Source: Candidatus Altimarinota bacterium
GTDB lineage: Bacteria > Patescibacteriota > Gracilibacteria > BD1-5 > UBA2023
Length of the DNA: 64,000 nucleotides
Assembly (NCBI GenBank): GCA_031407385.1
Contig: JANOIH010000004.1
Span: 4,104 to 68,103, forward strand
Direction of reading: 5' to 3'
Part shown: in pieces, positions 13,549 through 60,451 of the stretch
How the letters are laid out: each line of letters begins with the position of its first letter
Position numbering within the stretch: the first letter of the stretch is position 1
Translations under genes and position numbers: made by a program
The notes under the pieces: generated by a model
The model's database searches: none
The model's input: the letters and a program-made list of their open reading frames with translations, nothing else
Told to the model about the DNA's origin: nothing

Positions 13549-16500
13549 TTAGAGATATTTCTTCAGGATTGCCTCTTTCTGAGCTGGGATATTCGCGAGT
13601 TCTGATTCGAGTACAGAGATCTCTACATCTATCTGCTCGATCTCTGTGACTATACGCTGTTGTTCTGAGAGAAGAGGAAGTGGGATTTCAAAAGATGAAT
13701 ATTGTTGAGCATTGATATTTGGCTGAGCTGTTCCAGCTCTATTGTTCAATACCCAATTCTTATAGTAATCAGCTTTTAGTATAAAATTCAGAAAACTCGC
13801 ATCAAGAATATCTTCTTTGGTTCTAAATCGAATTAGATATCCTGCATATAATGCTTTGCCGAATTCTTCCCTATAGAAGAATGTCTTTCCTGCTGTTGCT
13901 CATGATCGTGCAAACAAAAAATCTCCATCACTTAGTATATATTTTTCTGCCACTGTTTCTGCTGTTTTCCATTCATTATTGAGCTTCCCACTATCGTTTA
14001 TATCTGTGATTCTGATATATCGATAATCTTTTTCTGGATTTCATTCTGTGGCACTTTCATTGGCTCCATACATTGGTTCGTGACATACCACACCAAGTTT
14101 GCAAAGATTATATTGTCCATAATAGCCATTAGCCCTCTTAACGATATCAGACTTATGTACTCCTAATTTCTCCTTGTTCTTAGCCTCTTTCTTCTCTAGT
14201 ATCTCCATCTCATCGATGATCTGTTGTTGTGTATCGAGAGATGGGAGTGGGATTTTGATATTTGATAAATCCTCACCATATACATGAGGCTGTGCCTGTC
14301 ATCTCTGCAATCCATATACCTCTGACTGAACTGTTTTCAGAAAAAGAGATATCAACTTTGTTGATATTATCGACTCATCTTTCGACTGTACTGTATTGCA
14401 ATCTGATGCAAAAATAGGAGTCGTGAAATAGTTCACAAAACCTGCATATGCACCTGATGCACTTATTGTGATAATATCACCTGTTCGATTGGACTCATTA
14501 TGAAAATAAGCTTCTTGTTGTCCTCATGCAATGACAGGAATAATTCAATCTTTGATTTTATCCTTTGTTATTGAAGTTCATTTCCATATCTTAGCGACTT
14601 CTCCGAGGGAGACTAATTTATTACTTTTCCAGATATCCTCATATTTAACTTTTTTTTTTACGGAAAGTGATATCGTTTTCTCAAACTCAGCTCGATCGAG
14701 CGTGAGCATATCGACGAGACTAACATGAGATATATACTGCTCTAGACTCGCAACTATAGGTCGATCATGGCGACCTGAGAATGCATCGAGGATATATGTA
14801 TTGACTCGCTCAGGACTCTCTACATCGGCAGGATCGAATAGGAGTGTACACTCATCGATCGTCTTGCCACGACGGATCGGATGGATACCCTCATCTCACT
14901 TGCGGTTCGAGAACTCATATCCGAGGAAATTTTTCTCATCTTGCTTGTCTCCGCTCTTCACAAGGACGATCTCTTGTCCGTATGCGAGGATATAGTAGAG
15001 TATCTTCTCTCGTTCAAGAGTGATGACCTGAGCGAGCCAGTCCTTTGGATTTTTGGATCTTATCTTTTTCTGGTAGTCGGTGTATATTTCATGGCTCTGC
15101 ATAGCCTCACTCGGCTCTCCAGATATGAGGCTGATATAGTCATCGAGCGATATCGTCTGCCAGACATGAGAGACATATTTCGAAATCCCATTTTCGAGGA
15201 CAGTATTATTTGTGAAGTTTGTCTTGATATTGATATCCTTATGATTCTGGAAAAAGTTCTTAATTCCAGTTTCGATACTTTCAAAATCATAGTTGCTCCG
15301 TCTCCTCAAGAATAATATCACTGTATTCGTCCCTGTTGCCATGAATGTCCCACTCCCGAGCTCGACGATCGCGACGAACTCAAAATACTTAAGAAGTATC
15401 TCACGAGTCTTGGTATATATGCCACCATTGGATAATATACTCGATGGGAGGATGATCGCAGCGATACCTCACTCTGCGAGGAGCTGCTTGGTCCGCTCGA
15501 TGAAGAGACTCTCTATCTGTGAGCTCTGATCCGTGAGGGCATCATAGAGGACGAAGTCTTTGTCTGCGGAGCGATTTTTCAAATTCCCTTTGCAAGCCGA
15601 TACGCTATACGGAGGATTGGAGAGAACAAAGTCAAATTGCCCGTTATCCTGAGTTCCTGGGATTATTTTTTTGAGCTTCTTCGAATAACTATCTGAATGC
15701 GTGAAACTATCGAGTCCGTCACCATGGATGACATTGGCGATACCATCACCATGGAGATAACACCCAACCTTGGTCGTCTTCACCAGACGATAGTCGAGCT
15801 CGACACCATAGATATACTCATACGCCCACTTGAACCCATGTCTTTGCCAGTCCTCGAGCTCTTGTCCTGCTGACCGAGGGAAATCCTTGACCTCTAGTGT
15901 CTGGATGATATTCTGGAGCTCTTCCATCGACTCAGTGAGGAAGTGTCCGCTCCCTGCAGCGTAGTCGATGATATTCGGGAGGAGCTCACCTCTGGCTCCT
16001 GACTTGAGTTTCTTCTCAGTGATCTGACGCATCGGGATACTCTTGCAGATGAATCTCGCGATCGGTACAGGGGTGAAGAATTGTCCTGCCTCTTGCTTGA
16101 GTCCTGTTGTGAGCAGGAGCTCGAAAAAGTCACCTAAAAATGGTTGTTTTTTTGCATAGCGAAACCTGTATCCCTGGAGAAGTTCGACTACTTCTTTGAG
16201 GACTTTTGCATTTTCTTCAAATGTCTCTTCATCGAATACTTCTTTGATAGCGAACTCGTTGTTCTTCTGGAGACGGATACGAGTGAATTCTCTGAGAATA
16301 TCTTGTTTGATCTTCTCATCAGTGATAGCCATACCGAACTTCCGATGGAAATCATCATCAGAAAGATCACTGATATCTTTTTCGAGAAAATCCTTCATTC
16401 CCTTCTTATAGAGGTCTGAGAGTCTCTTCTGAAATGATATCGAGTCATCTTCTCCTTCCTTCCACTGAAAATCTACTTCCTCGTCTTCGTCGGTACGATC

Positions 16501-17286
16501 TTCGTCTTTGATCTTGCAGAGAAAGAGTGTGAATATCTTATTGAATGCATTTGGCTTGTCAGATACAGCATTGTGACGGAGGATCTCGAGGAATCGATTG
16601 AAGATAAAAGAGCTATCCTCTTGTCGGATCTCTGCGAGATTGCCGAGGGAAAGTGCCTTGCTCTGGAAGTCATACGCTCGAGTCCAAGGCTCGAATATAC
16701 CATTCTGCTTGGAAAACTTGTTCCATCTATTGTAGAGATCCTCGGTATTGCTCGCCATCTGCCGATAGTCCTCTTCTACCTTGATGATCTCATTACGATA
16801 TTGTATTTCTTTGCCGTCGAACTGTGACGCATAGAGTACGAGGAACTCTGCACTACGATCTTGCTGAAGATATGAGAGGAGTTGTCCTCACTTTTTCTGA
16901 GTATTGAGCCATTCTTTATCGAACTCTCGTCCCCAGGTTTTGCACTCGATCATGAGATATGCCTGACCATCTCGACGGACAAGGATATCGAGCCATCCTC
17001 CTGCTGCACCATGTCCGACAGTGAATTTTTTCTCTAGAACGATATCTTCGGGACGATATCCCTTCTCAAGCAAACGATTCACGCACTCGAGTACAACCCA
17101 GTTCTCTTCTTGGGAAAAGTTGCGAGTCGTATCTCGTTCTGACTTGATCCGTTTGTTATAATCGATAGTTTCTTTTTCAAAATCTACTTCAATAGTATAA
17201 TTATCAAAAGATGTGAACTTCTTCACAAAAATCCCCGTAGTATTCTCTTTCGGTGTGAAACCAAGCTGTATGACGAATTTTTTCAT
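13549..17286 (-). CDS. Single-polypeptide restriction-modification-specificity enzyme (Type IIB/IIG, AloI/CjeI-like architecture), 1,245 aa
   Basis: One frame free of TAA/TAG for 3,738 nt, with 9 TGA. N-terminal PD-(D/E)xK-like GGWLDILV...LMIECK. gamma-N6A methyltransferase motifs FFTPVPIA, IIDYAAGSGHFL and LSNPPYS. C-terminal HsdS-like part has two TRDs and two conserved helices (LPSLDTQQQIIDEM, LPLLSEQQRIVTEIE). Confidence 0.8.
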
Positions 17287-32977: not shown

Positions 32978-33625
32978 ATGATAAAGATCCTCCTCGCAAC
33001 ATCACTGTTGTTCGTGCTCGCTTCTTGCGGTATGTCAGACACACCGACTCCCCCTATTACAGATACGACACCGATCCAGACAACAACCATGACCAAGAAC
33101 TACGAGACCACTCTCGAGACTGCGTCATCGAAGATCAAGTGATCTGATGAGTTCCGATCATGTATGGATATGAACGTGAATATGTGTATCCAGAACGCTG
33201 GGATGCAACTCGCACAGAAGAACAAGTCTGCAGAGTTCTGTAAGGAACTCACTTCTCCCGACCAACAGGAGAGCTGTACCTTCGCAGTCACTATGATGAA
33301 TGCTCAGGAGAAAAAAGATAAATCCCTCTGTGATACCCTCTCTGACACCTATAAGAAGCAGTGTACTATGAGTATGATCCGCAGCGAAGCCTCAGAGAAA
33401 AAAGATATCGTCATCTGTGAGCAGATCCCACAGAGTAGCTCTGGAGCTATAGTCGGCATGAGAGATACAGGACGCGATGACTGCAAGATGAACGTCATCA
33501 TGATGGATACGACAGCTACAGCGAAGTCATGTGATGCTATCGACGATACCCAGATCCAGAAGATGTGTACTACCATGATGGGAAGTCGCAATAGTCTCCC
33601 TCCTTCACCAACTCTTCCTCGATAA
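32978..33625 (+). CDS. Cys-rich lipoprotein
   Basis: Lipobox LASC. 12 further Cys in a 215-aa Met/Thr/Asp-rich protein. One in-frame TGA. Confidence 0.6.
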
Positions 33626-34674: not shown

Positions 34675-34727
34675 AAACAAAAAAGTAAAGAATATAAGTA
34701 TTAGATTCTGTAAAATATTTGTTATCT

Positions 34728-35090
34728 ATGGCACAATCTCGTCGTTCCATCTGAGATGCCTGAGAGGATATCGCAGCACGATATCTCAGTGAGAAGTGAC
34801 TCCAGATCGTGGAGAGGAATTATCAGATCAAGTGAGGAGAGATCGACATTATCGCAAGAGATGGCGATTTTTTTGTTTTTATAGAGGTGCGCTATCGTCG
34901 AGATGAGTCACATGGACACCCGCTCGATACCTTCGGCGTGATGAAGAGACGCACACTGAAGCGAACTGCCTTCATGTACGTGCATAAATACAAAATCGAC
35001 CCGGATATGATGCGGATCGATTTTGTGGGGATCATGCCGAAGTCCGAATGAGGACATAAGGTATGGTGGGTACGGGGGGTGGGAGTGTAA
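34728..35090 (+). CDS. yraN: YraN-family (UPF0102) endonuclease
   Basis: G-D-A-G-EDIAARYL...NYQIK-G-GEIDIIARDG...FIEVRYR. 120 aa with 5 in-frame TGA. Confidence 0.8.
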
Positions 35091-35092
35091 GA

Positions 35093-38000
35093 CTAGTGAC
35101 CACCGGAATCAGAAGAGTCAGATCCATGTGAATCTGGATCACCGAGTCCTCAGCTATCATCAATCTGCGAAGCTCCTCCAGGATTTGAGCCATCAGAATC
35201 TGGATTAGGATCTCCTTTTTTTGGTCAAATTTTTCCTCATGTTTTCTTTGGTGGAACAAAATTTGGTGGAGTTTTATCTAATCTGATTTTTTCTGCTTTT
35301 CCCGTCACTTCTGCACGTATATCTGTTGCATGCTTTGTTGATAATGTTGTAGTACTACCACCACTTTTCCAACTCTGGTAGTCTGATTCAGTATTGGTGC
35401 GCTCAGTATCAGCACTAAAGATACCATATGGATCAATACCCATTTTTTTCATCTCCTGGAAATATTCACTATTATCGATCAAGCTTGTAGCAAATTGCTT
35501 CTTTTGCTCTGGTGTTGTCCCTCCTCACTTATCTGTACGAGCACCGATCTGTTCTTGGAAATAATGAATAATCTCCCTCCTATATGCGAGATATTGCGCT
35601 CTCTGAAGAGTCACATCTCCATCAAAATACTTCTCATCGCGTAGTGCATCCATAGTTTTGATTACATATGCCCATATTTTCTCTTTACTCTCTTGATCCA
35701 TAGGCTTTCATCATCCACTATAACCAGAGAATTTTATCTTATTAAGCATGGAATTCATACTATTAAGACCATTTTCTCATCGAGCCAAGAGAATATTCTG
35801 ATATCCATGTTCGTCAAACCAGTCCTTACCGAAGTCGCTTCCAGGAATACTAGGATTCTTGAGCATCTCTGAATGTCACTCGGTCAACTTGTCTTGATAT
35901 CACTTCACTGTGACATTCTTATTTCATGCACGTTTGACCAACCAGCCATTTTGTCCTTGTAACATATCATGGAGTCATCTTCCTTGGTTGGCCTGCCAGA
36001 ACTTCATCATCGCTGTTGCTGGAGTCTCTCATTTATACTTTCCATCAGTAATTTTTTTATCTTCTGGACCATTGAGCATGCGATCACAGATACTATCGAA
36101 CTCACTGACAGCATTAGCAGATACTCGTCCTTGCTTGGCGAGATCATGGAGAGCAAGACGTACAGTATTACGATAGAGAGTATTAGATTCTTCGTTACGT
36201 AAGAAGCTGAATGCATGAAAACTCATCCCTCATCAAGCATATCACTTGAGTTTCTGGAGTGCAGTGTGTGAAGCATGTCGTGAATATCATCCACATGCCC
36301 AGATAAATGGCATAGCTTGAAATTCTGGGGATTTGATCTTACCAGCTACTGCTTCCATAGCCCCCATAGCCTTGTATATCTCATGTGTATTAAAATATCA
36401 TACTCATTTATTAAGGCGTCATTGAGCGCTTACCATCTGAGTCTGGTCCTTTCATTTTTTATGCGCGTTGTCAAATCCCTCGAATTTCCAAGTCTTCTCA
36501 AATCCTCCAGGTCATCCAATTGCCTTCACCACACCAGCAGCATAGGGATAATCACTCCAGTTCCCATCAATAATCTTCGTCAATGCATGCATGAGCTGTT
36601 CTTCTGTTGGCTCGTTTTCATGATCATCCATACTTCCCATCTCTTCTATAGCTTTTTTATAAGCCTTTTTTCTCCAGAAATTCAAATTTCCGATCTTAGA
36701 TGTAATGATGAACCCATCAAGGAATGCAAAATATCCAGGATCTGCAGTTTCAATATTATGTTGTGTAACTTTTGACTGATAATGCTTCACATCCTCGGCG
36801 TAGAAGTGACCATAATTCTTCAGCATATAGTTCATTGCGGCAACAACTTCTTCTGGACGACCATCGCGGTTATGTGCGATATGGATAGCTTTCAATCGAC
36901 CTGCAGGGCCAGGTATACCAAAGAGCTTATCCTCAATTTTCTGAACAATCTCCTTACTTCCATTGGTAATATCAGCATAGATCTGAGCGCCAACAGATGT
37001 CTCATCGAGCTTGAGAAACTTGGCAGTTCCCATGGCGAATCTCGCCGCATCGAGCTTGGCTCACTTCTCTAAGGTATGTTCGATACCGTGATACACCATC
37101 TCAAGTCATTTCCATATACTGGCAGGGTTCTGCCACTTCATCATACGACCAAAAAAGCTCCCTGTCATATGCGCATGTTCATGGTGATCTCCATGGAGAT
37201 CATGACTCGCTTCAGGAACGATGAGATCTTTGGTTGTTGCCTCAAGTTCTTGTTCCTGGAGATACCTTAGGAATGCCGGATAACTCATCGTACGCCATTT
37301 ATAGAGTTTCTTGAGTTTCTTATCAGCTCAGTGCTTCTTGGCATATGCCTTGATCTCTTCTATAGTATTCCCATTCTCATCGAACTCACCGAATCTGACA
37401 ATACCTCACTTTATGTACTCCATGCGGATATGTCCTCACTTTTTAGATTCGAAACATGTGATCTTTTTCTCTATCTCATGACCATGATCATCCTTTTCTT
37501 TGACGATGAGCTGTCCATCGTTGAGTTCTCAGGCAGTACCAAGTCCGAATTCTTTGAGCTGATCCGTCATCTCCTTATCTGTATCAACCTTGCCGATACG
37601 AGTGAATCCTGGAGTCTCAGAGAGTACGGCATATACATCAGATATCTTCTGATTGCGTAGTATATACCCATTACCTGCCATGAAGCTAACCGTGTCACCT
37701 ACGATCTCTCGTACTTGCCAGATTTCATTACTTTCTTTTTTTCCTGTTCCGATCTCAGTCGATGGTGCGATGAACGATGTCCCAGGCTCAAATCCAAATC
37801 CTCGTCATGTATCATCTATTACATTGAGCTTGGTCGCAATATTGGCTGCCGTAACAGGCTCTGCATCGATAGTTGGCCGTGCGTCATAAAACTTAGTGCC
37901 GTTACTATTCTCGGCAACCTCCTGATCTTCTTCAAGAAGTGAATTAAACTCAGTACTCGTCATCATTGATGCTCACTTCATCTTCTTCAGGGAAGCTGCG

Positions 38001-39376
38001 AGATCATCATACGAGAGGCTGAAGTGCTGAGAGCTCCTCAGGGCGCCCCCATCGACAGGAAGTCACTCTAGTTCCACTCCATAACCATGATTGTCTCCTA
38101 CCTCAATAGGATTTCCATCTGCATCTCGTACCTTTTTGATACGCATGAATTGTGCCCCTCACTTACTATCTTGGAATCGTATAACTGGATTCGATGTTTT
38201 GAGGAGATCGATATTCTCTATGCTCGTTCCTCCATCTGCAGTTCTCAGTCCGGTAGTGAGTGAGTCGATGAATCCTTCATACCGATCCCATGTATCATCA
38301 TACTCTTCTCATCTTTTGCGCGCTTCTGCCTGTTTTTGTCTTTTGATATTTCCGAGAATATCAGTTCATCTAGGATCTATAGATTCTGGCGCATCTATGA
38401 CAATCGTTCGAAATATTTCTTGCGAGAGTTTTCTACGAGCAGTATCGTTCGCGATAATGGTACCGATTTTTGTAGCATCAAAATCTGAGGCCGCTATCAT
38501 ATATGTCGTACTCGCCTCAAGTCCACGGATAAAAGAGTCCTGCTGATCTGGCATAAGGCTCGTGTATCATTTTCCCATCTCTTTTTCAGCAAATAACCTC
38601 AGGAAGTCTGGTGGTATCAATCCTGTGTCGTTCGCATGCTTGATAGTGATACTTGCTCACAGTGCTGACAGAACTTCTTTCTTGCGATCATTTGAGGCTC
38701 CTTGATACACCCCCAAGATAAAGTCGATATCAGAGCCATCTGGCACTTGATTAAATTCATGATAATTTTTATGGATCCCCCTGAATCGTGACTTCTGTTC
38801 AGGAGTGGTAAGATACATATTCTTATCATAAAATATCTGTTCAAAATCTCTTTTTTCTGAGGGATTCTCTCACTGAAGACCGGGAAATGTCTTATAAACT
38901 AATTTTCTCATGAGATGAGTACGTGAAGCATAGTTCTTGAGTTCATCTTCATCGAGATCACTCAGACTCGTGCTGAGGATAGTGCTCCAGTCAGCTCGTT
39001 GTGTTCTGATATTCGGGAAGAGTTCAAGTGCACGATCATGGGTCCGTTTTCTCATAAAAACAAGATCTATTGCCATTCGTAAGATCCTCTCTCCGATAAT
39101 ATTATCTCATGAATTCGTCGCAATATCCGCCTCTTTGATAGTATCCCACTCTGTTGAATTTTCACGACGAAGATCATTCATGTGAGTGCGGACTTTGTTA
39201 TGATATTCATCTCGCTTTGCCTTATAGGTATCAAATTTTTCTGGCTGAATTGGTTGACCAAATTCTCGAAAAATACCTTCCTTAAGAAGGTTTTCCACTG
39301 TATTTCCTGTTTTCTTTTTTTTCAGTACTTCAGATGACTCTGGAGATCATTCTGCTGCACTATTTAGTCCTGTCAT
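35093..39376 (-). CDS. Giant orphan protein (1,427 aa), no recognisable domain
   Basis: Every codon of the frame checked: 38 TGA and no TAA/TAG over 4,284 nt. ATG 39374-39376 (alternative 39401-39403), stop TAG 35093-35095. Joins 7 same-frame track fragments. Confidence 0.75.
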
Positions 39377-39481
39377 AATTGGTAGAGTTACTTTCCCTTG
39401 CATAATAGCAGAAAATACGAAAAAACACAAATAAAAAATCCATCTTTTAGATGAATTTTTTGAGATTCTTTTTTGAATGAA

Positions 39482-39558
39482 TGGTGCCAATGAGTGGGCT
39501 CGAACCACCGACCTCGGCGTTATGAGTGCCGTGCTCTAACCAGCTGAGCTACATTGGC
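39482..39558 (-). tRNA. tRNA-Met (CAU), elongator type
   Basis: Acceptor GCCAATG/CATTGGC fully paired, loop CTCATAA, GGTTAGAGCAC as in elongator Met, encoded CCA. Confidence 0.85.
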
Positions 39559-39643
39559 GAATATCTGATTATTTTGAGGACTTTCCTCCTGTTTTCTGTA
39601 CCGTAAACTATTACTTTTTAGTTTTTAACTACTATCTACCTGA

Positions 39644-39724
39644 TGGTTGCGGACGAGTGAATCGAACACCAGTTACGACCTTCGGATTATGAGCCTCATG
39701 AGACTCGCTAGACTATACTCCGCG
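39644..39724 (-). pseudogene. Degenerate duplicate of the initiator tRNA (tRNA-fMet-like)
   Basis: Shares CGCGGAGTA...GGCTCATAATCCGAAGGTCGTA...TTCGATTCA...TCCGCAACCA with the neighbouring tRNA-fMet. The D arm, anticodon stem and acceptor no longer pair. Confidence 0.5.
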
Positions 39725-39747
39725 ATACAGGCACTTCAGAAACTATA

Positions 39748-39822
39748 TGGTTGCGGAGGTATGAATCGAACATACGACCTTCGGATTATGAGCCCGACGA
39801 GCTACCACTGCTCTACTCCGCG
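39748..39822 (-). tRNA. Initiator tRNA-fMet (CAU)
   Basis: C1:A72 mismatch, GAGC/GCTC D stem, TCGGGCTCATAATCCGA anticodon arm. Close to E. coli tRNA-fMet. Encoded CCA. Confidence 0.85.
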
Positions 39823-39849: not shown

Positions 39850-40842
39850 TTATATAGAAAACTCATGAGAGTCAATACCTTTTTTGATTTCTGTGATCAG
39901 ATTTTGTGTACGAGGTACCTGACATGTCTGATCCTGCTGATACCTGATGAGCTCTGAGAGTGCTACTGATATGGGTTTCTGAGCGTTGAGCCTGAGATGC
40001 AGGTCACGATACGACTCATCTGCATGAGCAAACGAGAGGAAGTCGTCACTCTGCGCATCATGATATCCTCCGATCTCCTTATACATATCCCAGAACGCGA
40101 GCCGACCACGCACGAGCGCTGCCATCGCGCTCACTTCCCCGCGCGCGATCACCCACTCACTCGCATCGATACATGCATGCCACGTCGCGATATCTACCCA
40201 CGGCATCAGATGATATCCAGATGGGAGAACTATATCTGCATGACCCCACACAAGCACCTCAACGTTATCAGGAATTGGATCAAATATGAGTGAATTCGCG
40301 AGAGTATCTGAGTATACAAAGATTGAGATCCAGTTTTTGTCGCTATCGAGTCCGTATTGGCGAGCGATATCTGTGCGTGACATGCAGGGTGGATAGGCTG
40401 GAATCAGTCCAGCTCATGCAGGAAGTGGCGATGGTATGACTTCGATGATCTGTCGATATGGTGTCGAACTGATATGTTCTCTCCCATGATGCAGAACCCA
40501 TAGAGGATCGAACGAGAGATAGTCGATACGCAGTACGAGTGAGTGCTCTGTGAAAAACTCTAACCCCGGAATAACTGCATGAAAGAGAGAAAAGGCAAGC
40601 TGAGAGAGTCTCTTGGTACCAAAGTCGGCAATCGGATCGACACTATATCTCCCGAGGATATCATGATTCTGAGAGACGAATCCAAGCACCAGATCGACAT
40701 GGTCTGTCCAGATGGCGAACTCATAGAGACCCGGATACTCACGCTCGATCCCGGCTATGAGCTCCGAGCAGAATCCCATATCGCCAGAGTTGTCGATCAC
40801 TGAGAGCAATATATCGATCGTAGTTGGATGGTTATGATTCAT
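39850..40842 (-). CDS. earP: EF-P arginine rhamnosyltransferase EarP-like (DUF2331)
   Basis: N-terminus IDILLSVIDNSGDMGFCSEL (EarP has VVDNYGDIGV); C-terminal ARGEVSAMAALVRGRLAFWDMY. Two fragments joined over TGA 40414-40416. 330 aa. Confidence 0.7.
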
Positions 40843-41209: not shown

Positions 41210-41788
41210 ATGTACTGATATATCGCAGGGAGCATCCTCGCCATCGATGGCATCACCGTCACACTCCTCGCCACAGGCACGGGGATCGGTTTCGACATAC
41301 TCGTATCACCGACAGTTCTGACGAGCCTCCACGGCCGAGAAACACTCGAACTCTGGATCCACCATCATATCACGGACGCTGGACAGACTCTGTTCGGATT
41401 CTCGACGCCAAGTGAGCGTGGTCTCTTCAGACAATTGCTAAAAGTAAACGGCATCGGTGGCAAGTCAGCTCTTGCACTCCTCGGACTGGGCGAAGAGAAT
41501 CTCGTACGAGCGATCCAATTCGAGGATGATACACTCCTCTCCAGTGTCCCAGGTATCGGGAAGAAGACAGCACAGAAGATCATCGTCGATCTGAAGGGAT
41601 CTATCGACCTGACGAGGAAGACAGCAGGTGAGAAAACCCCCAAGAATACCACAGATATCACCCTCATCACGTCTCTTATCGGCATGGGCTATGACAAGTC
41701 TCGTGTCGAGGAAGTAGTTGGCGATATCGACACTACTCTCTCCATCGAGATCCGCACAGTAGAAGCGATACGCAGACTCGCGAAGTAA
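41210..41788 (+). CDS. ruvA: Holliday junction DNA helicase RuvA
   Basis: MY-G-YIAGSI...GIGFDILVS...LFGFSTPSERGLFRQLLKVNGIGGKSALALL...VPGIGKKTAQKIIVDLK. 192 aa. Confidence 0.85.
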
Positions 41789-41789
41789 T

Positions 41790-42518
41790 ATGCAAAAATA
41801 CCAGAAACAATTCGACACTCTCATCTGAGTCAAAACTGAACCCAACACTCATGAATTGGGTCTTTTCGCACGGGCAGAGCTCTATATCGCCAAGCTCGCA
41901 TGGATACCAGGGATCGAGATGGTTGCCGTGGTAAACTCTCTGTCGATGTATGCCACGCATGAGGACTCAGATATCGATCTTTTTATTATAACAAAAGCAG
42001 ATACGCTCTGGCTCGTGAGACTTCTGGTGACTCTCACTTTCTGGAGACATGGCGTGTGGCGACATGGTGAGGATATCGCTGGGAACTTCTGCCTCTCGTT
42101 CTTCGTGACAACAGATGCGATGGATATGAGTCATATCGCTCTAGAACAAGATATCTATCTGTATAACTGGATATACTATCTCAAGCCCATCTTCACACGC
42201 GGTGACATCTATGAGAGGTTCTTGCAAGCGAACAGCTGGATCCACATGGATGAAAAGCAGAAACAGGAGAATAAGAGATTTGAGATTCAGGATATATCAT
42301 CTGTCATGGTAGCAAAAAATTCCTATTACCTGTTATCTATTAGTTATTACCTGAACTATCTTATTCGCTTCTTCTGGCTACCAAAGACTCTCAGAAGCCA
42401 TGCACGACTTGGGCGTCCAGAGTGAGTGATCATCTCAGATGACATGCTGAAGTTTCATGATCAGGACAGGAGAAAACAAATCCGCGATACAATTCTCGAA
42501 AAAGATTTTGACAAATAG
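41790..42518 (+). CDS. Nucleotidyltransferase-domain-like hypothetical protein
   Basis: VVNSLSMYATHEDSDIDLFIITK motif. 242 aa across two TGA. Stop TAG 42516-42518. Confidence 0.5.
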
Positions 42519-52102: not shown

Positions 52103-53965
52103 ATGTCTCGCAACTCCTTCATCTGAGTCTCACTCATGGCGATGATCGCCATGAGTACTCTCGTCACGACGATATCAGCAGCTCCACCGATCAATCCTAT
52201 CGATCAAAGCCCGAATGTTCAAGGATTATTCGCTACCTATTTCCAGAATATGATCAACACACCCTGTGCTCTTGGATCTGTGATCTCAGGATTCTCATCT
52301 AGTGCAACTGATTATGGCAAGAATACGTGTGTATCTATCGTAACTACTCTCACAAACACGTATCCGACGCTCTTCGATATCACTTGGCTCAAAAATGGAG
52401 CCAATATCTCCTATATTGGAGGCAATGTGGGTATCGGAATAGCGAATCCTACAGCCAATCTCGAAGTTGCTGGTCAGATAAAGGTCACTGGAGGTGTGCC
52501 AGGGTTAGGCAAGTTCCTCACCTCAGATGCAACTGGTCTCGCGAGTTGGACAACATTCACGAGCGGATTGCCAGCAACAGCACTCTTTGGTCAGACTCTC
52601 AGATATGATGGTCTCTCTTGGGTTGCCAATAGTAATATATATGACAATGGATTCAACATCGGTATCGGTACGCTCTCCCCTCTCTACAAGCTCGAAGTCA
52701 ATGGTAAGATATGATCTCACACCACACTCTCCACAGACAACGATAATACAGTGACTACCAAGAACTATGTCGATGCGAGACTCGCAAGTCTCTGTACGAG
52801 TCTAGGTGGTACATGGAACAACGCCACAGACATATGTACTCCTGCAGTGACCTATAGTTGGCAATTGGGAACAACATATGGAGCATGTAGTGTTACTTGT
52901 GGTGGTGGGACACAGAGTGCACCAGCAGTATGCAAGCAGAGCAATGGAACTATAGTTGCTGATGCTCTCTGTGCTGGAGCCAAGCCTGCAGCTATGAGTC
53001 AGAGCTGTAACACACAGGCATGTATACCAGTAGTCAATGGAGGATGGTCAGTATGGGGAGGAGGATCATGTAGTGCGAGTTGTGGAGGGGGTACTATGAC
53101 ACAGACTCGTACTTGTAATAATCCTGCACCATCAGGTGGTGGGGCTAATTGCGGAGGATCATCAACACAGTCTATTAGCTGCAATACTCAAGCATGTGTC
53201 GTAGCAGTCAATGGATCATGTGGAGGATCAGCCAATACTTGTGGAGCTGGTAGTCCATCTGCATACTCAGCTGGAAGCTGTGGAGGATCTCAGACATGGA
53301 GTTGTCTCGGTTCAGGAGGAGGAACAAATGCTACAAGTTGTAGCATTGCCAATGCTGCATGTGCACTTGCTTCGTGTACCTATCCAGGTGGAACTGAATA
53401 CTGGGGTTCATGTGGCGTATCCATATGAGCGACTACTATTGCTCATGGAGGAAGTGCATGACCATTTACGAATACAGCCTGAGGATATGTGGGAAGTATT
53501 TCTTACTGATGTAATAATGGTACGTTTACTGTAGCGAGTCAATCTTGTAGTCCGGCTCCTGTGAATGGTTCATGTGGTGGTGGGGCCAATACTTGTGGGG
53601 CTGGTAGTCCATCTGGATACTCAGCTGGTTCGTGTGGAGGATCTCAGACATGGAACTGTCTCGGCTCAGGAGGAGGGAGTAGTGCTAATTGTAGTATTGC
53701 CAATACTGCATGTATCAACTATACTTATACGGCCTTCTCTGCTGCATCTGGGCAGGCATGTAGTGCGAGCCATCCTGGATATATAGAGGTAGCAATATGA
53801 TGTAGACGTGATGCAAATGGTGTATTCGACGGGTATGATCCATGGCCTATGCCAAATTGTCCATGAGCAGCAGATATGGCTGGTACACGGTTCCGACATT
53901 GTAAAGATCCCGATGTACCTGGCAGTTGGGATCAGTCCTTTGATGGAAATTGGATAGTATTTTAG
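52103..53965 (+). CDS. Secreted protein: tail-fibre-like NVGIG repeats, two thrombospondin type-1 repeats, two Cys/Gly-rich repeats
   Basis: 620 aa across 9 in-frame TGA. TSR consensus GGWSVWGGGSCSASCGGGTMTQTRTCNNPAPSGGGANCGGSSTQSISCNTQAC. Stop TAG 53963-53965. Confidence 0.7.
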
Positions 53966-55073: not shown

Positions 55074-58000
55074 CTACAGACTCATGATATACTTCATAAC
55101 TTCGACACTTTTCTCGATCTTCACACGCTCACGCTGCATGATGCGGATGATGTAGGCGAGAGCGCGAGATTCACGAGATGGGACGTTGAGAGTCTGGAGA
55201 GTAGTGGCATCAGAGTAGGCACCTTGGAGTGCTTCTGATTTTTGCGGAGCTAAGAGTATCAGAGAGCGAGTGATATTCTGTATGAGCTGACGTCCTGACT
55301 GTCGTATCATCTGGGCTCGATCAACAGATGATACTTGATCAGCCTGGGCTGATACGACTGCATCATGGATCGGAGCAAACAGGGAGATATATGAGTTGAG
55401 GAGGTATCCAACTGGCAGAGTCGTACCTGAGAGAGTTCGCTTCGAGAGGAAGAGTTCTGATACAAGTCCTGGAGTTGTATTAGTAGGAGAATTGGTATTT
55501 ACTGTATTCGGGAGATTCACCGTTGGGAATGATTGTGATCCTCCTCCGCCACCTCCTGGACCAGCTACTGGAATGGTCGAGATAACTGGTGGATGTGGAT
55601 CGATCACTGTGATCATCACAGTTACTGGAACTGTAGTAGATATGCCATCAGTCACCGTATAGGTGAAGTTGTCTGATCCAACATATCCGAGAGCTGGAGT
55701 ATAGACGAGGAGTCCTGTCGATGAGAGAATACCAGTCCCATACAGAGCTGGTGTCACGAGTGTGAAGGTGAGTCCGACACTATCGACATCAGTTGCGGTG
55801 AGTGAGCGAGTCAGTGAGTTATTGGTCTCGAGGTATCCAGTCAGTGAGCCTCCAGAGAGGGTCGTTCCTGAAGAGATCACCATGTTCCCTGTGACACTCG
55901 AACTCGATGGGAGAGAGACTGGAGTATCGTTCACACAAGTGACATCACTGATCGTCACCGTGGTGACTGCCGAGAGTGCGAGAGCCGTATCTCGTGCCTG
56001 GTAGGTAAATGTTACAGGGCTTACAGTACATGCATTCGCGGTAGGAGTAAATACCACTCCAGTTCCGACAACCGCGACACTTCCCCCTGATGCAGGTTGA
56101 GTGAGTGATGTGATCGAGAGGGGGTTATTTTCTACATCCGTGTCATTGGCAAGGACTGTGATCATAAGTGGTGTGTCCTCCGTTGCGGAGACAGACTCTC
56201 CAGTTGCAACTGGGGCATCGTTCACACAGGTGAGAGAGACAGAGATTGTTCCCGTATTGGAGAGCCCTCCGAGTGGATCTGTGATACGATAGTCCACTGA
56301 GTCAGCACCACAGGCGTTCGCGGTTGGAGTATAGACGAGGTTATTTCCTGAAGCGGTGACGGATCCGTTAGAACCATTGGTAAAGGTCGAGAGCGTGAGA
56401 ACTCCTCCTTCGACATCCGTGTCATTGATGACTGGTGAGATGATGAGTGTCGTATCTTCAGTTCCGGTAGTAGTATCGTTATTGGCGACTGGGAGATCGT
56501 TCATAGCGGTGATCGAGATACTTCCTGTGACGACGAGTGAGTCATTGACTCCGTCAGAGACATGGAAGGTGAAGGTATCTGAACCGTTCGTATTCGCAGT
56601 TGGCGTATATGTGAAGGCACCTGTTGATGAGAGAGTGAGTATTCCTTGTGTTACGTTGGTATCAAGGATATATGTGAGTGGAGTTCACTCGATATCTGAC
56701 CCCGTGAGGACATCCGCAAGTGGGGTATCTTCGGAGGTAGTGAAGGCTCCTGAATATGCTGTTGGAGGAGTATTATAGTTGTTTGGTTGGACTGTGATAT
56801 CTACAGTACTCGTGAGAGAGAAGAGGACCCCATCAGAGACATGGAAGGTAAAACTCTCAGCTCCCGTATATCCAACTGGTGGTGTATATGAGAATACACT
56901 TCCTGTGATGACCAGTGATCCAGTTGCAACAGGAGTATCGATGATATAGCTAAGTATATCTCCATCGATATCTGTCGCTGAGAGTGTCCCCGTGAGGACA
57001 TGTCCACTATCCGTCTCGATATTGCCTGTGACATTGTATGTTGATCCTGTGGATGTCGGAGCATCATTGACACAGGTGACAGTCATAGTCACGATACCCG
57101 TATTCGACAGAGATCCTGAGAGATCCGATATACTGTATGAGAACGTATCTATTCCACAATAGTTCGCGACTGGAGTATACGTCAGGAGATTCCCTGAGGC
57201 ACTAACACTTCCGGATGCAGCTTGTGAAAAAGCAACAAGACTCATGCTGTCTCCGAGATCTGGATCAGTGTCATTACCAAGTGGGGTTGTGTCGAGTGTT
57301 CCATCTTCTCCTACCGTGAAGCTATCTGCGATTGCTGTTGGAGCATCGTTCACAGCGGTTATCGTGAGAATTACGGTCTCGGTACTCGAGTTCAGGACAC
57401 CATCTGTGACATGGAAGGTAAAACTATCTGAACCGTTATAGTTCGCATCTGGCGTATAGGTAAAGATCCCTGTTGATCCGAGTGAGAGTGTACCGTTCGA
57501 TACATCTGCATCGAGGACAAAAGTCACTGGTGTCAGATCTGGGTCAGATCCGGAGAGAGTGGTATTGATCGCGACATCTTCTGTCGTGAGGAACGATCCT
57601 GAGTCAGCGACTGGAGCCTGATTCGTAGTAGATACAGTGATATTGACGACTCCAGTATTGGAGATATTCCCATCTTGATCGATGATCGAGTACTGTATTG
57701 TATCTGGCCCGAGGTAGAGAGAGTTCGGCGTATAGCGGATCTGATTCGCTACGATAGAAGCAGTCCCGCTCGTTGGAGCGGTGAATCCTGTGATCGTGAG
57801 CGTCTGTGCTCCATATGGTTGATCTGCATCGGTATCATTGGCGATGACGTCTATATCTGCAGTCGTATCCATCTGCACATTGACCGTGTCATCTGTCGCA
57901 ACTGGGACATCCTGTACAGCCGTGACGGTGAAGGACATCGTGGCTCCTGATGAGTCCACGATACCATCATTGGCGACGAAGTTGAAGCTATCTGAACCAT

Positions 58001-60329
58001 TGTAGTTTGCGTTCGGAGTATATGTGAATCCTGATCCTACGATCGAGAGTGTTCCGTTGGTTGGGAGAGTCGTTGCAGAGAACGAGAGGGTATCTCCATT
58101 GATATCTGATCATGAGAATACATCCATAACAGCCATATCCTCAGAGACAGAGAAACTACCAGAAGACACCTCAGGAGCAAAGTTAGAACCTGGGGCGACG
58201 GTGATATATACAGTTCCTGTATTCGAAGTAGCACCTGACTGATCGGTGATCGTATACATGAAGCTATCAGCTCCCATGTAAGCAATCGATGGAGTATATT
58301 CGAACTGAGTACCATTGACTGCGAGAGTACCATTGGATGGCAGAATAATACCAGTGATACTAAAAGTCTGAGACTCATACCCACTATCTATATCTGTATC
58401 ATTCGCGAGGACATCGAATGTTGCCATGACACCTCCTGTTGCGTTCATATTATCATCGATCGCGACTGGAGTATCGTTGGTACAAGTAGTAGTCACCGTT
58501 GCTGTAACTGGATCTGAGTATCGGAGAAATTGGTCAAATGCTCTCCAGTCAAACGCATCTACTCCACAGAAGTCTGGATTCGGCGTATATTCCACGAGAC
58601 CTGAGACTCCATCGACTGTTATTGTTCCATTGGTTGGATCGGTGAACTTCTCGAAATAGACAGTATCTCATGATGAGTCTGTCGCCATCATCGTACCGGA
58701 GAACATCATATCTTCTGATCCAGTGAGAAAGAGTGGAGCTGTAACAGGTGGCTGATTCTGTGTCGTGATATCCGCGGTACAGATATTATCTCCGATATTG
58801 TTCGTAGCAGTGAGGATATAGTTGTTCACACTATCGTTGAGTGGTGGATAGTATACTCCTGATCAGACAGCTGATACAGAGGTATCCATACTACCACCTG
58901 TTGCTGTTGGTTCGGTGAGGATGGTCGAGAGTGTATTGGTGACATTCCATGAGAGTGTGACAGACTCACCATTGGCGATACTTCCAGCAGAAGTATTGAA
59001 GCTACACACAGGTGGACGGAGAATATTAGGAGCATTGTTCCAGAATACGATCTTTGCACTATATGCATTGACATTGGTTGGCCAAGCGACCGTTGTATTG
59101 TTGGTATCGACATACTGTGGACAGACTCCACCTGGACACGCCTTATTCACAGCACTGGCTCCAGTATTGACGAGGAGATGAGCTTCATTGGTTCGTGGAT
59201 TGAGTACTCCAGTACTGATATAGTTCTTATAACCGAAGTGAGTAAAAGTAACGGCGCTCGTATCCAAACTAAGGATATCATCCTTATTATAGGTCGTCAT
59301 ACCTCCTGAAGCAGTCTGGATCTCTACGATTGGAAGAATTGCCTTATACGTATTGAGATATGTATTTGCTGAGACTGTAGCAAGTGTGCCGACCGCATCG
59401 AACTGATCATGAGTCGATATCATCGGATGATCTGGATGCCAAGTGAGGATCGTATTCGAGTCGATCGTATTGTTTTCAGCGCTTCCGAGGGTTGTCGATA
59501 TGATAGAGATCGCAGACTCCTGTGGATTGTAGAATGTATTACTGTTGATAGTGTTCGTATCCGTATCAGTGAGTACTATAGACTTGTTTCCGCCTGAGAA
59601 GATATTGCCCGTGATAGCATTACCAGATGATGTAGCACCAAGAGCAACCCCAAGAGTTGAACCAGTGAGATTGGATACGAAGTAGTTCTCGACTATAGAG
59701 GTATTGTAGGCTCATTCTACTGAGATACCTGCATTGATCGTATTTTTGAACGTGTTGTGTGTGATAGATACATCCGTATTGGCACCCAGGAGGATACCAG
59801 TACCACCAGAGGTAAAATCCGAATCCTGGATGATGATATTCGTTCCACCGAGTGAGAGATCTACTTGGGTAAGAGTTGTACTTGGGAATGTGATACCTGA
59901 GAGAGTCACGTATGAAGCTCCTGAGAGGAATGATATATTGGTCGCTCCGGTAGACCCAAGTACTGGCTTATTGTTCGCGGTACAACTACTATATGAACCC
60001 ACGACGATCTGAGATCCTGAGATACCAGAGTCATCTATAGCGAGTGGATCCGTCCACGTCTCTCCACACTTCAGGAGGATCTGATCTCCAGGGAGGAAGG
60101 CCTGCGCACTCACATGTGTGAGCGACTGCCATGGAGTCCCGAGAGTGAGTCCATTGTTCGCATCACTTCCGAGTGTCGCATCCACATAATAATTAGTATT
60201 ATTCGCGAACGTGATCTCTGTGAGTGGAGAGAAGAGTTGGAGAGTGAGAGAGACGAGCGTTATCAGAGCGACAGCTCGTGATGGTGATGACTTTTGTAAC
60301 ATAGGGAGAGAAGTAAAATACTCTCTCAT
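55074..60329 (-). CDS. Giant surface adhesin (~1,751 aa): signal peptide, right-handed beta-helix, ~11 cadherin/VCBS-like repeats
   Basis: Five same-frame track ORFs joined over TGA at 56685, 58110, 58668, 58863 and 59712; gaps checked free of TAA/TAG. Repeats of NDAP.A..D......ED....I.VL.NDTD.D. Stop TAG 55074-55076. Start ATG 60329 or 60302. Confidence 0.8.
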
Positions 60330-60451
60330 TTGATCACAATTATCACATACAAGCAAAATATTCGCCTTGCCGAGCAAGAGAAATATTTTGTTATAATTGA
60401 ATTGCGGCCTTCATCACTTGCTTTTGATCTCGCTTTCTATATCATACTCTT

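Follow-up and report, generated by a model that had tools for sequence, protein, structure and literature searches.

A giant protein family at a fixed locus of UGA-recoded bacteria, with a conserved C-terminal core and a hypervariable N-terminal half

The window analyzed here is a stretch of 64,000 nucleotides (nt) from a Candidatus Altimarinota bacterium (assembly GCA_031407385.1, contig JANOIH010000004.1). Its minus strand carries an open frame of 4,284 nt with 38 in-frame TGA codons, referred to below as the giant gene, which is almost certainly a real gene of a conserved family and reads UGA as glycine. The most interesting new element of this locus is the combination of a fixed chromosomal position, a conserved core and a swapped N-terminal half.

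The Giant Gene and Its Locus

The giant gene and its immediate surroundings comprise the following features, with the methods that support them given in brackets.

35093..39376 (minus): complete coding sequence of the giant protein, 1,427 amino acids (aa) plus a TAG stop, 38 UGA codons as Gly, predicted 159 kDa, isoelectric point (pI) 6.2
34719..35090 (plus): yraN (UPF0102), convergent with the giant gene, a pairing kept in nearly all related loci (Pfam match)
39482..39822 (minus): upstream tRNA block on the giant-gene strand (ARAGORN, Rfam, alignment and repeats)
39482-39558 (minus): tRNA-Met (ARAGORN)
39748-39822 (minus): tRNA-Met, initiator-like (ARAGORN)
~39643-39727 (minus): diverged tRNA-Met-like copy (alignment; uncalled by ARAGORN and by Rfam at the gathering threshold)
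39850..40842 (minus): earP-like gene, conserved upstream neighbor (Pfam EarP, synteny)
~41210-41788 (plus): ruvA, beyond earP (library match, synteny)

The giant gene is held at a fixed locus between ruvA-earP-tRNA and yraN-galU-queA. Read along the strand of the giant gene, the order in the family is ruvA (-), earP, the tRNA where present, the giant gene (+), yraN (-), galU (-), a lipoprotein gene, queA (-), a tetratricopeptide repeat (TPR) protein gene, iscS and nifU. Most or all of this neighborhood is retained in the close clade and in locus L016, whose giant protein is 30% identical to that of the window, and the yraN-galU pairing is still present in L018 at ~20% identity. Two very distant members occupy other chromosomal contexts. 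The original prediction had placed the frame between yraN and a tRNA cluster and had proposed a synteny search; the position is correct, with yraN convergent on one side and two tRNA-Met genes upstream on the other, and the search found the locus conserved in related genomes down to ~20% identity. The stop codons of yraN and the giant gene lie 2 nt apart in the window and are 2 nt apart or overlapping across loci.

The diverged copy at ~39643-39727 forms a tandem with the tRNA-Met at 39748-39822. The two share the anticodon loop; the copy has an altered D arm and 5 nt inserted in its variable region, and it could be a pseudo-tRNA or a tRNA of unusual form. A search for att-like repeats found none that would connect the tRNA block with the distal end of the giant gene, and a genomic island integrated at the tRNA was rejected for lack of such a repeat and of an integrase. 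Two further conserved neighbors belong to no Pfam family. One is a 242-aa protein adjoining ruvA (41790-42518, plus), which is 50-58% identical in related loci, and the other a 215-aa Cys-rich lipoprotein-like protein between galU and queA (32978-33625, plus), which is 32-43% identical.

Open Frame and Coding Status

The giant gene starts with an ATG and contains no TAA, and its sole TAG is the terminal stop; a codon count agrees with the earlier description of a 4,284-nt minus-strand frame with 38 TGA and no internal TAA or TAG. Upstream of the ATG at 39376 the frame remains open to 39508, but the extension overlaps the tRNA-Met at 39482-39558 on the same strand. The N-termini of the homologues (M-x-x-P-N-T-P...) align at the ATG at 39376. 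The public prediction for this gene, P0001, places the start nine codons earlier, at the ATG at 39403, and has 1,436 aa. The standard code splits the frame into 13 same-frame fragments of at least 40 aa, exactly seven of which reach at least 60 aa, the number reported originally. An SRA assembly of independent origin (L007) contains the gene with identical nucleotides.

When the window is shuffled 200 times, the longest run free of TAA and TAG has a mean of 237 codons and a maximum of 337, compared to 1,427 codons in the giant gene, and the remaining five frames of the region are open over at most 114-289 codons, with a maximum of 289 on the opposite strand. The original prediction had concluded from length that the frame is coding. 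The conclusion is upheld by frame-specific conservation and by the ratio of nonsynonymous to synonymous substitution rates (dN/dS). Length alone is not a sufficient argument here because, in a genome with only two stop codons, the same window holds a shadow frame of 1,654 codons. This frame (55335-60299, plus) is free of TAA and TAG, contains 66 TGA and is the antisense shadow of a real gene (55074-60377, minus) for a 1,767-aa surface protein with 11 Big_9, 10 cadherin-like and beta-helix domains. In a code-25 genome, a frame rich in TGA need not be coding even when it is very long.

The reading of UGA as glycine is established knowledge for Gracilibacteria. In a codon-aware alignment of six family members, TGA stands opposite Gly 259 times, opposite TGA 192 times and opposite Trp 5 times, and TGG stands opposite Trp 462 times and opposite Gly twice. 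The proposal that UGA is a sense codon of a code-25 lineage is thus supported by its pairing with Gly in homologues, and the alternatives of UGA as Trp or as stop in the giant gene were rejected on the same counts. In-frame TGA occurs in 18 of the 18 giant-gene loci inspected, which come from genomes of 28% to 47% GC. The genes of L001-L005 are intact, 4.0-4.3 kb long and closed by TAA, with 18-35 in-frame TGA and no internal TAA or TAG, and the open frames of L008-L018 hold 11-72 TGA, most in the genome of 28% GC, apart from one fragmentary locus with at least 2. A tRNA with the anticodon UCA is absent among the eight tRNAs that ARAGORN called in the 64-kb window, which is only part of the genome.

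Between giant-gene homologues translated with table 25, the proportion of synonymous differences (pS) is 0.72-0.79, which is saturated, and that of nonsynonymous differences (pN) is 0.25-0.34. In the unsaturated pair L011/L013 the dN/dS ratio (omega) is 0.115 for the giant gene, 0.035 for galU, 0.14 for queA and 0.15 for yraN. A search for orthologs with dN/dS estimation, which had been named as a check, has therefore returned homologues under purifying selection. Taken together, the TGA/Gly pairing, pS and pN, and omega indicate that the giant frame is translated, that its family evolves under purifying selection and that UGA is read as Gly.

One might still suspect an antisense shadow frame, a pseudogene or a frame in which UGA means Trp (code 4) or stop, given the comparable shadow frame with 66 TGA elsewhere in the window and the Trp residues at UGA in P0001. 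This suspicion is refuted and retains practically no probability. The opposite strand opens for no more than 289 codons, which led us to reject an antisense shadow; conservation is frame-specific, dN/dS is low, TGA is paired with Gly and hardly ever with Trp, and full-length intact orthologues are present in at least 18 loci.

Distribution of the Family

The giant protein had been described as an orphan. This is not the case, since the gene occupies the corresponding chromosomal position in related recoded bacteria. Among 5.8 billion protein clusters, a search recovered this very gene in a version with Trp at UGA (P0001, 97% identity) together with five further full-length homologues of 48-56% identity, all of them lacking Pfam domains. 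Six more loci came from a scan that covered one genome for each GTDB species; they lie in metagenome-assembled genomes (MAGs) labeled Candidatus Gracilibacteria except for one that was labeled Peribacteria by its submitter. When 1.84 billion cluster representatives were searched exhaustively with HMMER, 194 relatives were found at E <= 1e-3. About 25 of them are full-length, with ~1,240-1,436 aa and identities down to ~17%, and the remaining ones are fragments that result from calling UGA as stop. Orthologues in Gracilibacteria MAGs lie in conserved synteny.

The family has been found so far only in UGA-recoded genomes, and its relatives are annotated in public databases only as 'hypothetical protein'. 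The locus with the deviating label, L010 (CAZDFE010000072.1, 'uncultured Candidatus Peribacteria'), has 14 in-frame TGA and is 90% identical to L009 from a Gracilibacteria MAG; the label is probably wrong or follows another naming scheme. The giant gene occurs once per stretch examined, no paralogue was found within the window and no relative was found on IMG/VR viral contigs. In a selective literature check that covered PMC11452946 and, apart from its tables, PMC8406219, no description of the family was found.

Domain Architecture of the Giant Protein

The giant product is a soluble multidomain protein of 159 kDa and pI 6.2. Its regions were delimited from AlphaFold2 (AF2) models, with the predicted local distance difference test (pLDDT) as confidence measure, and from conservation across the family.

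38225..39376 (minus): residues 1-384, mainly helical N-terminal region, the most variable part (AF2 N-half model, sliding identity)
37214..38224 (minus): residues 385-721, three tandem modules of beta-sheet plus helix, each ending in an S-Y-x-x-F helix (AF2, hhalign)
37166..37213 (minus): residues 722-737, His-rich linker EASHDLHGDHHEHAHM (AF2 pLDDT <50)
35357..37165 (minus): residues 738-1340, all-alpha C-terminal core (conservation profile, AF2 C-half model of low confidence)
37076..37090 (minus): residues 763-767, HGIEH, an HxxEH motif opening the conserved core (complete in 15 of 26 members, absent from several clades)
35096..35356 (minus): residues 1341-1427, disordered tail with a basic patch, PPKKTGGKIGPKK, followed by an acidic Gly/Asp/Ser stretch (no invariant columns)

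A hydropathy scan of the whole protein found no transmembrane segment (maximum Kyte-Doolittle mean over 19 residues 0.87), and the hydrophilic N-terminus holds no signal peptide, both as originally stated. The other features noted at that time could also be located, namely the His cluster near 37.2 kb (HDLHGDHHEHAH at nt 37169-37204) and the Gly/Asp/Ser acidic tail at the C-terminus.

Residues 1-384 are only 25-50% identical even between sister genomes, and a recurrent M-x-x-P-N-T-P-like motif marks the extreme N-terminus of the family. The AF2 model of the N-half (pLDDT 64.2) shows this helical region followed by the three modules, which reach pLDDT values of 70-89. The modules weakly resemble one another (pairwise hhalign E = 4.6e-5, 3.6e-4 and 1.3e-3), and the third bears a His-rich loop (DDHGHE). 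The adjoining His linker varies in length between lineages, and only its terminal H-x-H-[ML] is widely kept. The model of the C-half (pLDDT 52.8) consists entirely of helices. The AF2 target was the homologue P0003, which has fewer UGA, with an alignment of six sequences and Trp (W) at the UGA positions; the inputs of the profile searches also carry W there.

The highest conservation is found in core residues ~750-1050, with 65-86% identity within the close clade. In the alignment of 26 family members only E925 and K934 are invariant, both in the C-terminal core, and no His, Cys, Ser or Asp is. In the tail, close-clade members share a K-x-G-P-R-M-K-K basic patch followed by D-E-D-x-x-Y-x-G-G-x-A-D-A-x-D, and a GG-x-A-D-A-x-D-like motif is common to related clades. 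Several deep clades end in -EAA, -EAV, -KAA, -RAA or -GAA. These C-termini may be short linear motifs.

Searches for Known Domains and Folds

The absence of any recognizable domain, as originally described, was confirmed in every library searched, and no curated domain could be assigned. The code-25 translation has no match in Pfam, NCBIfam, PHROGs or PADLOC even at E <= 1. Four separate segments of the protein gave only noise against Pfam at E <= 10, and the 26 family members gave only single noise matches against Pfam and NCBIfam. Profiles built from 6 and 26 sequences did not match PDB sequences, the hits being PilF with E = 7.8 and coatomer with E = 1.4. A Foldseek comparison of predicted segments, also proposed earlier, yielded no credible match for these W-at-UGA models, either for the N-half against PDB and BFVD or for the C-half against PDB: template modeling (TM) scores are ~0.1, up to 0.13, and one hit with E = 2e-4 has a root-mean-square deviation (rmsd) of 26 Å. 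The best PDB match of the N-half is Spindlin, which, like the giant protein, has three consecutive small beta modules, in its case tandem Tudor/SH3-like barrels. This match is not significant (E = 0.13, probability 0.15, TM score 0.08-0.2, no sequence similarity) and serves as a lead only. The C-half shares with its best matches, importin/HEAT-like scaffolds, a long all-alpha region, but these matches are uninformative at E >= 0.66 and a TM score of ~0.1 with a low-confidence model.

A metal-dependent hydrolase, either an inverted-zincin metallopeptidase with the HxxEH motif or another His-cluster metalloenzyme, is conceivable since HGIEH at residues 763-767 opens the most conserved region, conserved Glu residues follow downstream and His-rich loops occur at two positions. 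The motif is that of the M16/pitrilysin inverted zincins. In the giant family, however, it is intact in only 15 of 26 members and missing from whole clades; no Peptidase_M16 or other peptidase match was obtained even at E <= 10, the region is predicted to be all-alpha, and the His-rich loops vary in length or are absent across the 26 members. An M16 metallopeptidase was thus rejected, the motif not being conserved, and the wider reading as a metal-dependent hydrolase is highly improbable.

Hypervariability and Allele Exchange

The giant protein is always the most diverged gene product of its neighborhood. Between L008 and L012 the flanking proteins are 94% (galU), 87% (ruvA), 79% (yraN) and 60% (earP) identical, but the giant proteins are 42-43% identical overall and 25-29% over the N-half. 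At the nucleotide level, the flanks of this pair have an identity of 0.7-0.88 and the interior of the N-half one of ~0.5, and the drop coincides with the borders of the gene. The flanks of the window are closest to L016 (galU 89%, ruvA 70%, queA 65%), whose giant protein is of a deeply different type and belongs to a separate old clade. Accordingly, a neighbor-joining tree of galU, ruvA and earP groups L008 with L012 in 200 of 200 bootstraps and the window with L016 in 157 of 200, and the tree of the giant gene recovers each of these groups in 0 of 200. The giant gene never unites L008 with L012, not even in its conserved core.

Further signs come from within the gene and from its composition. 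Along the giant genes of L011 (4725-8846) and L013 (4957-8997) the synonymous divergence (dS) forms a mosaic, with values of 0.6-1.0 over codons 1-450 and 700-800 and saturation over codons 450-700 and 850-1050, which suggests intragenic recombination. The GC content at third codon positions (GC3) of the window's giant gene is 0.36, compared to 0.44-0.60 in most neighbors, and UGA makes up 27% of its Gly codons, compared to 3-22% in most neighbors, yraN with 38% being the exception. Because tree conflict, the identity drop at the borders, the mosaic of dS and the shift in GC3 and UGA usage occur together, the sequences indicate that recombination at a fixed locus has repeatedly replaced alleles or segments of the gene. 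The contrast between a conserved C-terminal core and a hypervariable N-terminal half is evident from the alignments.

The same observations can be read without any conflict role. In this explanation the product would be a core cytoplasmic structural or scaffold protein, its N-half a relaxed spacer and the tree conflict a product of rate heterogeneity. The protein has neither an export signal nor a transmembrane segment; its gene stays at one position amid housekeeping genes even between deeply diverged lineages, lacks a second copy in the window, is subject to purifying selection comparable to that of queA, yraN and earP, and is not found on viral contigs. Against this stand the behavior of L008 and L012, which are sisters by their flanks in every bootstrap and never by the giant gene, the mosaic of dS within one gene and the sharp fall of identity at the gene borders. 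Relaxed constraint alone does not yield supported topological conflict, and rate heterogeneity, although it may enlarge the conflict, is not a ready explanation of it. We consider a plain scaffold possible, if doubtful.

Proposed Function and Comparison with Known Systems

Our tentative proposal, held with somewhat less than even confidence, is that the giant protein acts as a non-enzymatic modular recognition or adaptor protein. The non-enzymatic part is argued from conservation, because only E925 and K934 are invariant among the 26 members, none of the invariant residues is a His, Cys, Ser or Asp, and HxxEH is complete in 15. The conserved alpha core would perform a constant task, for example docking to a conserved cellular partner, and the fast-changing, exchangeable N-half with its beta modules would recognize a partner that itself changes quickly, most plausibly a component of a host, a prey or a phage. 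The His-rich loops would probably bind metal in some lineages. The hypervariable N-half and the exchange of alleles appear compatible with a role in interaction or conflict. A part in host or prey interaction had been suggested originally as pure inference, and this guess would be partly right if the partner belonged to a host or prey.

Several points weigh against this proposal. The analysis yielded no positive indication of a binding partner or of a place in the cell, and the housekeeping neighborhood together with an apparently universal single copy is also compatible with an ordinary core function. With values of 0.12-0.18, average omega is low, and no direct trace of positive selection was found. 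Rate heterogeneity or long branches in the giant gene could make the tree conflict look larger than it is, the grouping of L016 with L012 being an example. The Foldseek and profile searches are negative rather than informative, and confidence in the AF2 models is low to moderate (pLDDT 52.8 and 64.2); a hidden catalytic fold could be missed because they were built from six sequences with W at UGA.

An episymbiotic lifestyle has been inferred for Gracilibacteria-type lineages (PMC8406219, PMC11452946), which is one reason to consider a factor that is exported or translocated into host or prey by a Sec-free route related to type IV secretion or pili, with the acidic disordered C-tail as signal. 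The N-half is hypervariable and recombining with exchanged alleles, the disordered acidic tail carries a shared short motif, several loci have pilin genes at a distance of a few kb, and in L014 PrgI and TraC-like genes are found 8 kb from the giant gene. The protein has, however, no signal peptide, transmembrane segment, anchor or adhesin repeat, and the same window encodes classical surface proteins, namely the 1,767-aa Big_9/cadherin protein and a 620-aa TSP1 protein. Linkage to secretion genes is not consistent, and the idea of the tail as a signal is drawn only by analogy with signals of the Dot/Icm type. On balance, translocation is unlikely. Sec/Tat-exported adhesins differ from the giant protein in having a signal peptide, an anchor and adhesin repeats; no Pfam match to Ig-like, cadherin, beta-helix or other adhesin repeats was obtained for it or for 26 relatives.

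A bolder extension joins this route to the recognition proposal. The giant protein would then be a lineage-defining specificity determinant of UGA-recoded episymbiotic or predatory bacteria within the candidate phyla radiation (CPR). Its core would dock to a contact or translocation apparatus, its exchangeable N-half with the three beta modules would recognize surface structures of host or prey, and exposure or delivery would be independent of Sec, possibly by means of the acidic tail. We judge this speculative and distinctly unlikely; if true, allele swapping between lineages would change host range.

The yraN gene is a widespread gene of the housekeeping type, and its tight convergent pairing with the giant gene, seen in nearly all loci with stop codons that overlap or lie 2 nt apart, invites a different idea, that of an anti-phage or intragenomic-conflict protein acting with the adjacent YraN-type PD-(D/E)xK nuclease. 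Hypervariability and allele exchange are typical of defense genes. Yet the giant protein matches no PADLOC-DB defense model at E <= 1, and library profiles found no NTPase or nuclease motif in it. The gene appears universal and single-copy at a fixed locus rather than patchy in islands, the pairing with yraN is lost in L014 and L017 where the giant gene is kept, and the general housekeeping character of yraN also speaks against a joint role. Such a defense function is very unlikely, and a defense protein of the PADLOC type was set aside on the missing match and the fixed housekeeping locus across the family.

Two further candidates were rejected. The polarity of a polymorphic toxin is the reverse of that seen here, where the N-half is variable and the C-terminal core conserved, and the downstream gene is the conserved convergent yraN. 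A phage or mobile-element gene is contradicted by the lack of a PHROG match, of an IMG/VR relative and of an att-like repeat.

Streptococcal M proteins, which lie on the bacterial surface, are hypervariable in their N-terminal part and conserved in the C-terminal one. They share with the giant family this polarity and the exchange of alleles at a fixed locus; the giant protein, known here from sequence alone, differs from them in having no signal peptide, cell-wall anchor or coiled-coil rod. Having failed the tests for adhesins, M16 peptidases, PADLOC defense proteins, polymorphic toxins and phage genes, the giant family is therefore filed among the lineage-restricted CPR protein families without assigned function, which it seems to fit. 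Like the unannotated Gracilibacteria/Absconditabacteria-restricted families of PMC8406219 it appears, judging from the 18 loci inspected, limited to UGA-recoded CPR genomes, and it is deeply conserved and devoid of functional annotation. The architecture, the fixed locus, the hypervariable N-half and the exchange of alleles are added here for the giant family.

Other Genes of the Window

Thrombospondin type-1 repeats are unusual in bacteria. The 620-aa protein mentioned above (52103-53965, plus) is rich in Cys and Gly, has an N-terminal hydrophobic segment and matches TSP1_ADAMTS and TSP_1. Another large gene (13549-17286, minus) encodes a single-chain restriction-modification enzyme of 1,245 aa with HSDR_N-like, N6_Mtase/Eco57I methylase and two Methylase_S domains.

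Significance for UGA-Recoded Bacteria

Gracilibacteria and their relatives are uncultivated, recoded and thought to be host-dependent, and roughly half of the protein families specific to their lineages are without annotation (PMC8406219). Conserved proteins of this kind are common in these genomes. Public pipelines shatter its gene into fragments or render the 38 UGA codons as Trp, and profiles and structure predictions made from public entries are degraded as a consequence. The giant gene is among the largest in the window and was present in all related UGA-recoded loci that were recovered. For a gene amid housekeeping genes it is unusual to combine allele replacement and a hypervariable N-half with a conserved core and a fixed position, and the giant protein represents a concrete and testable candidate for a lineage-specific function in interaction or recognition.

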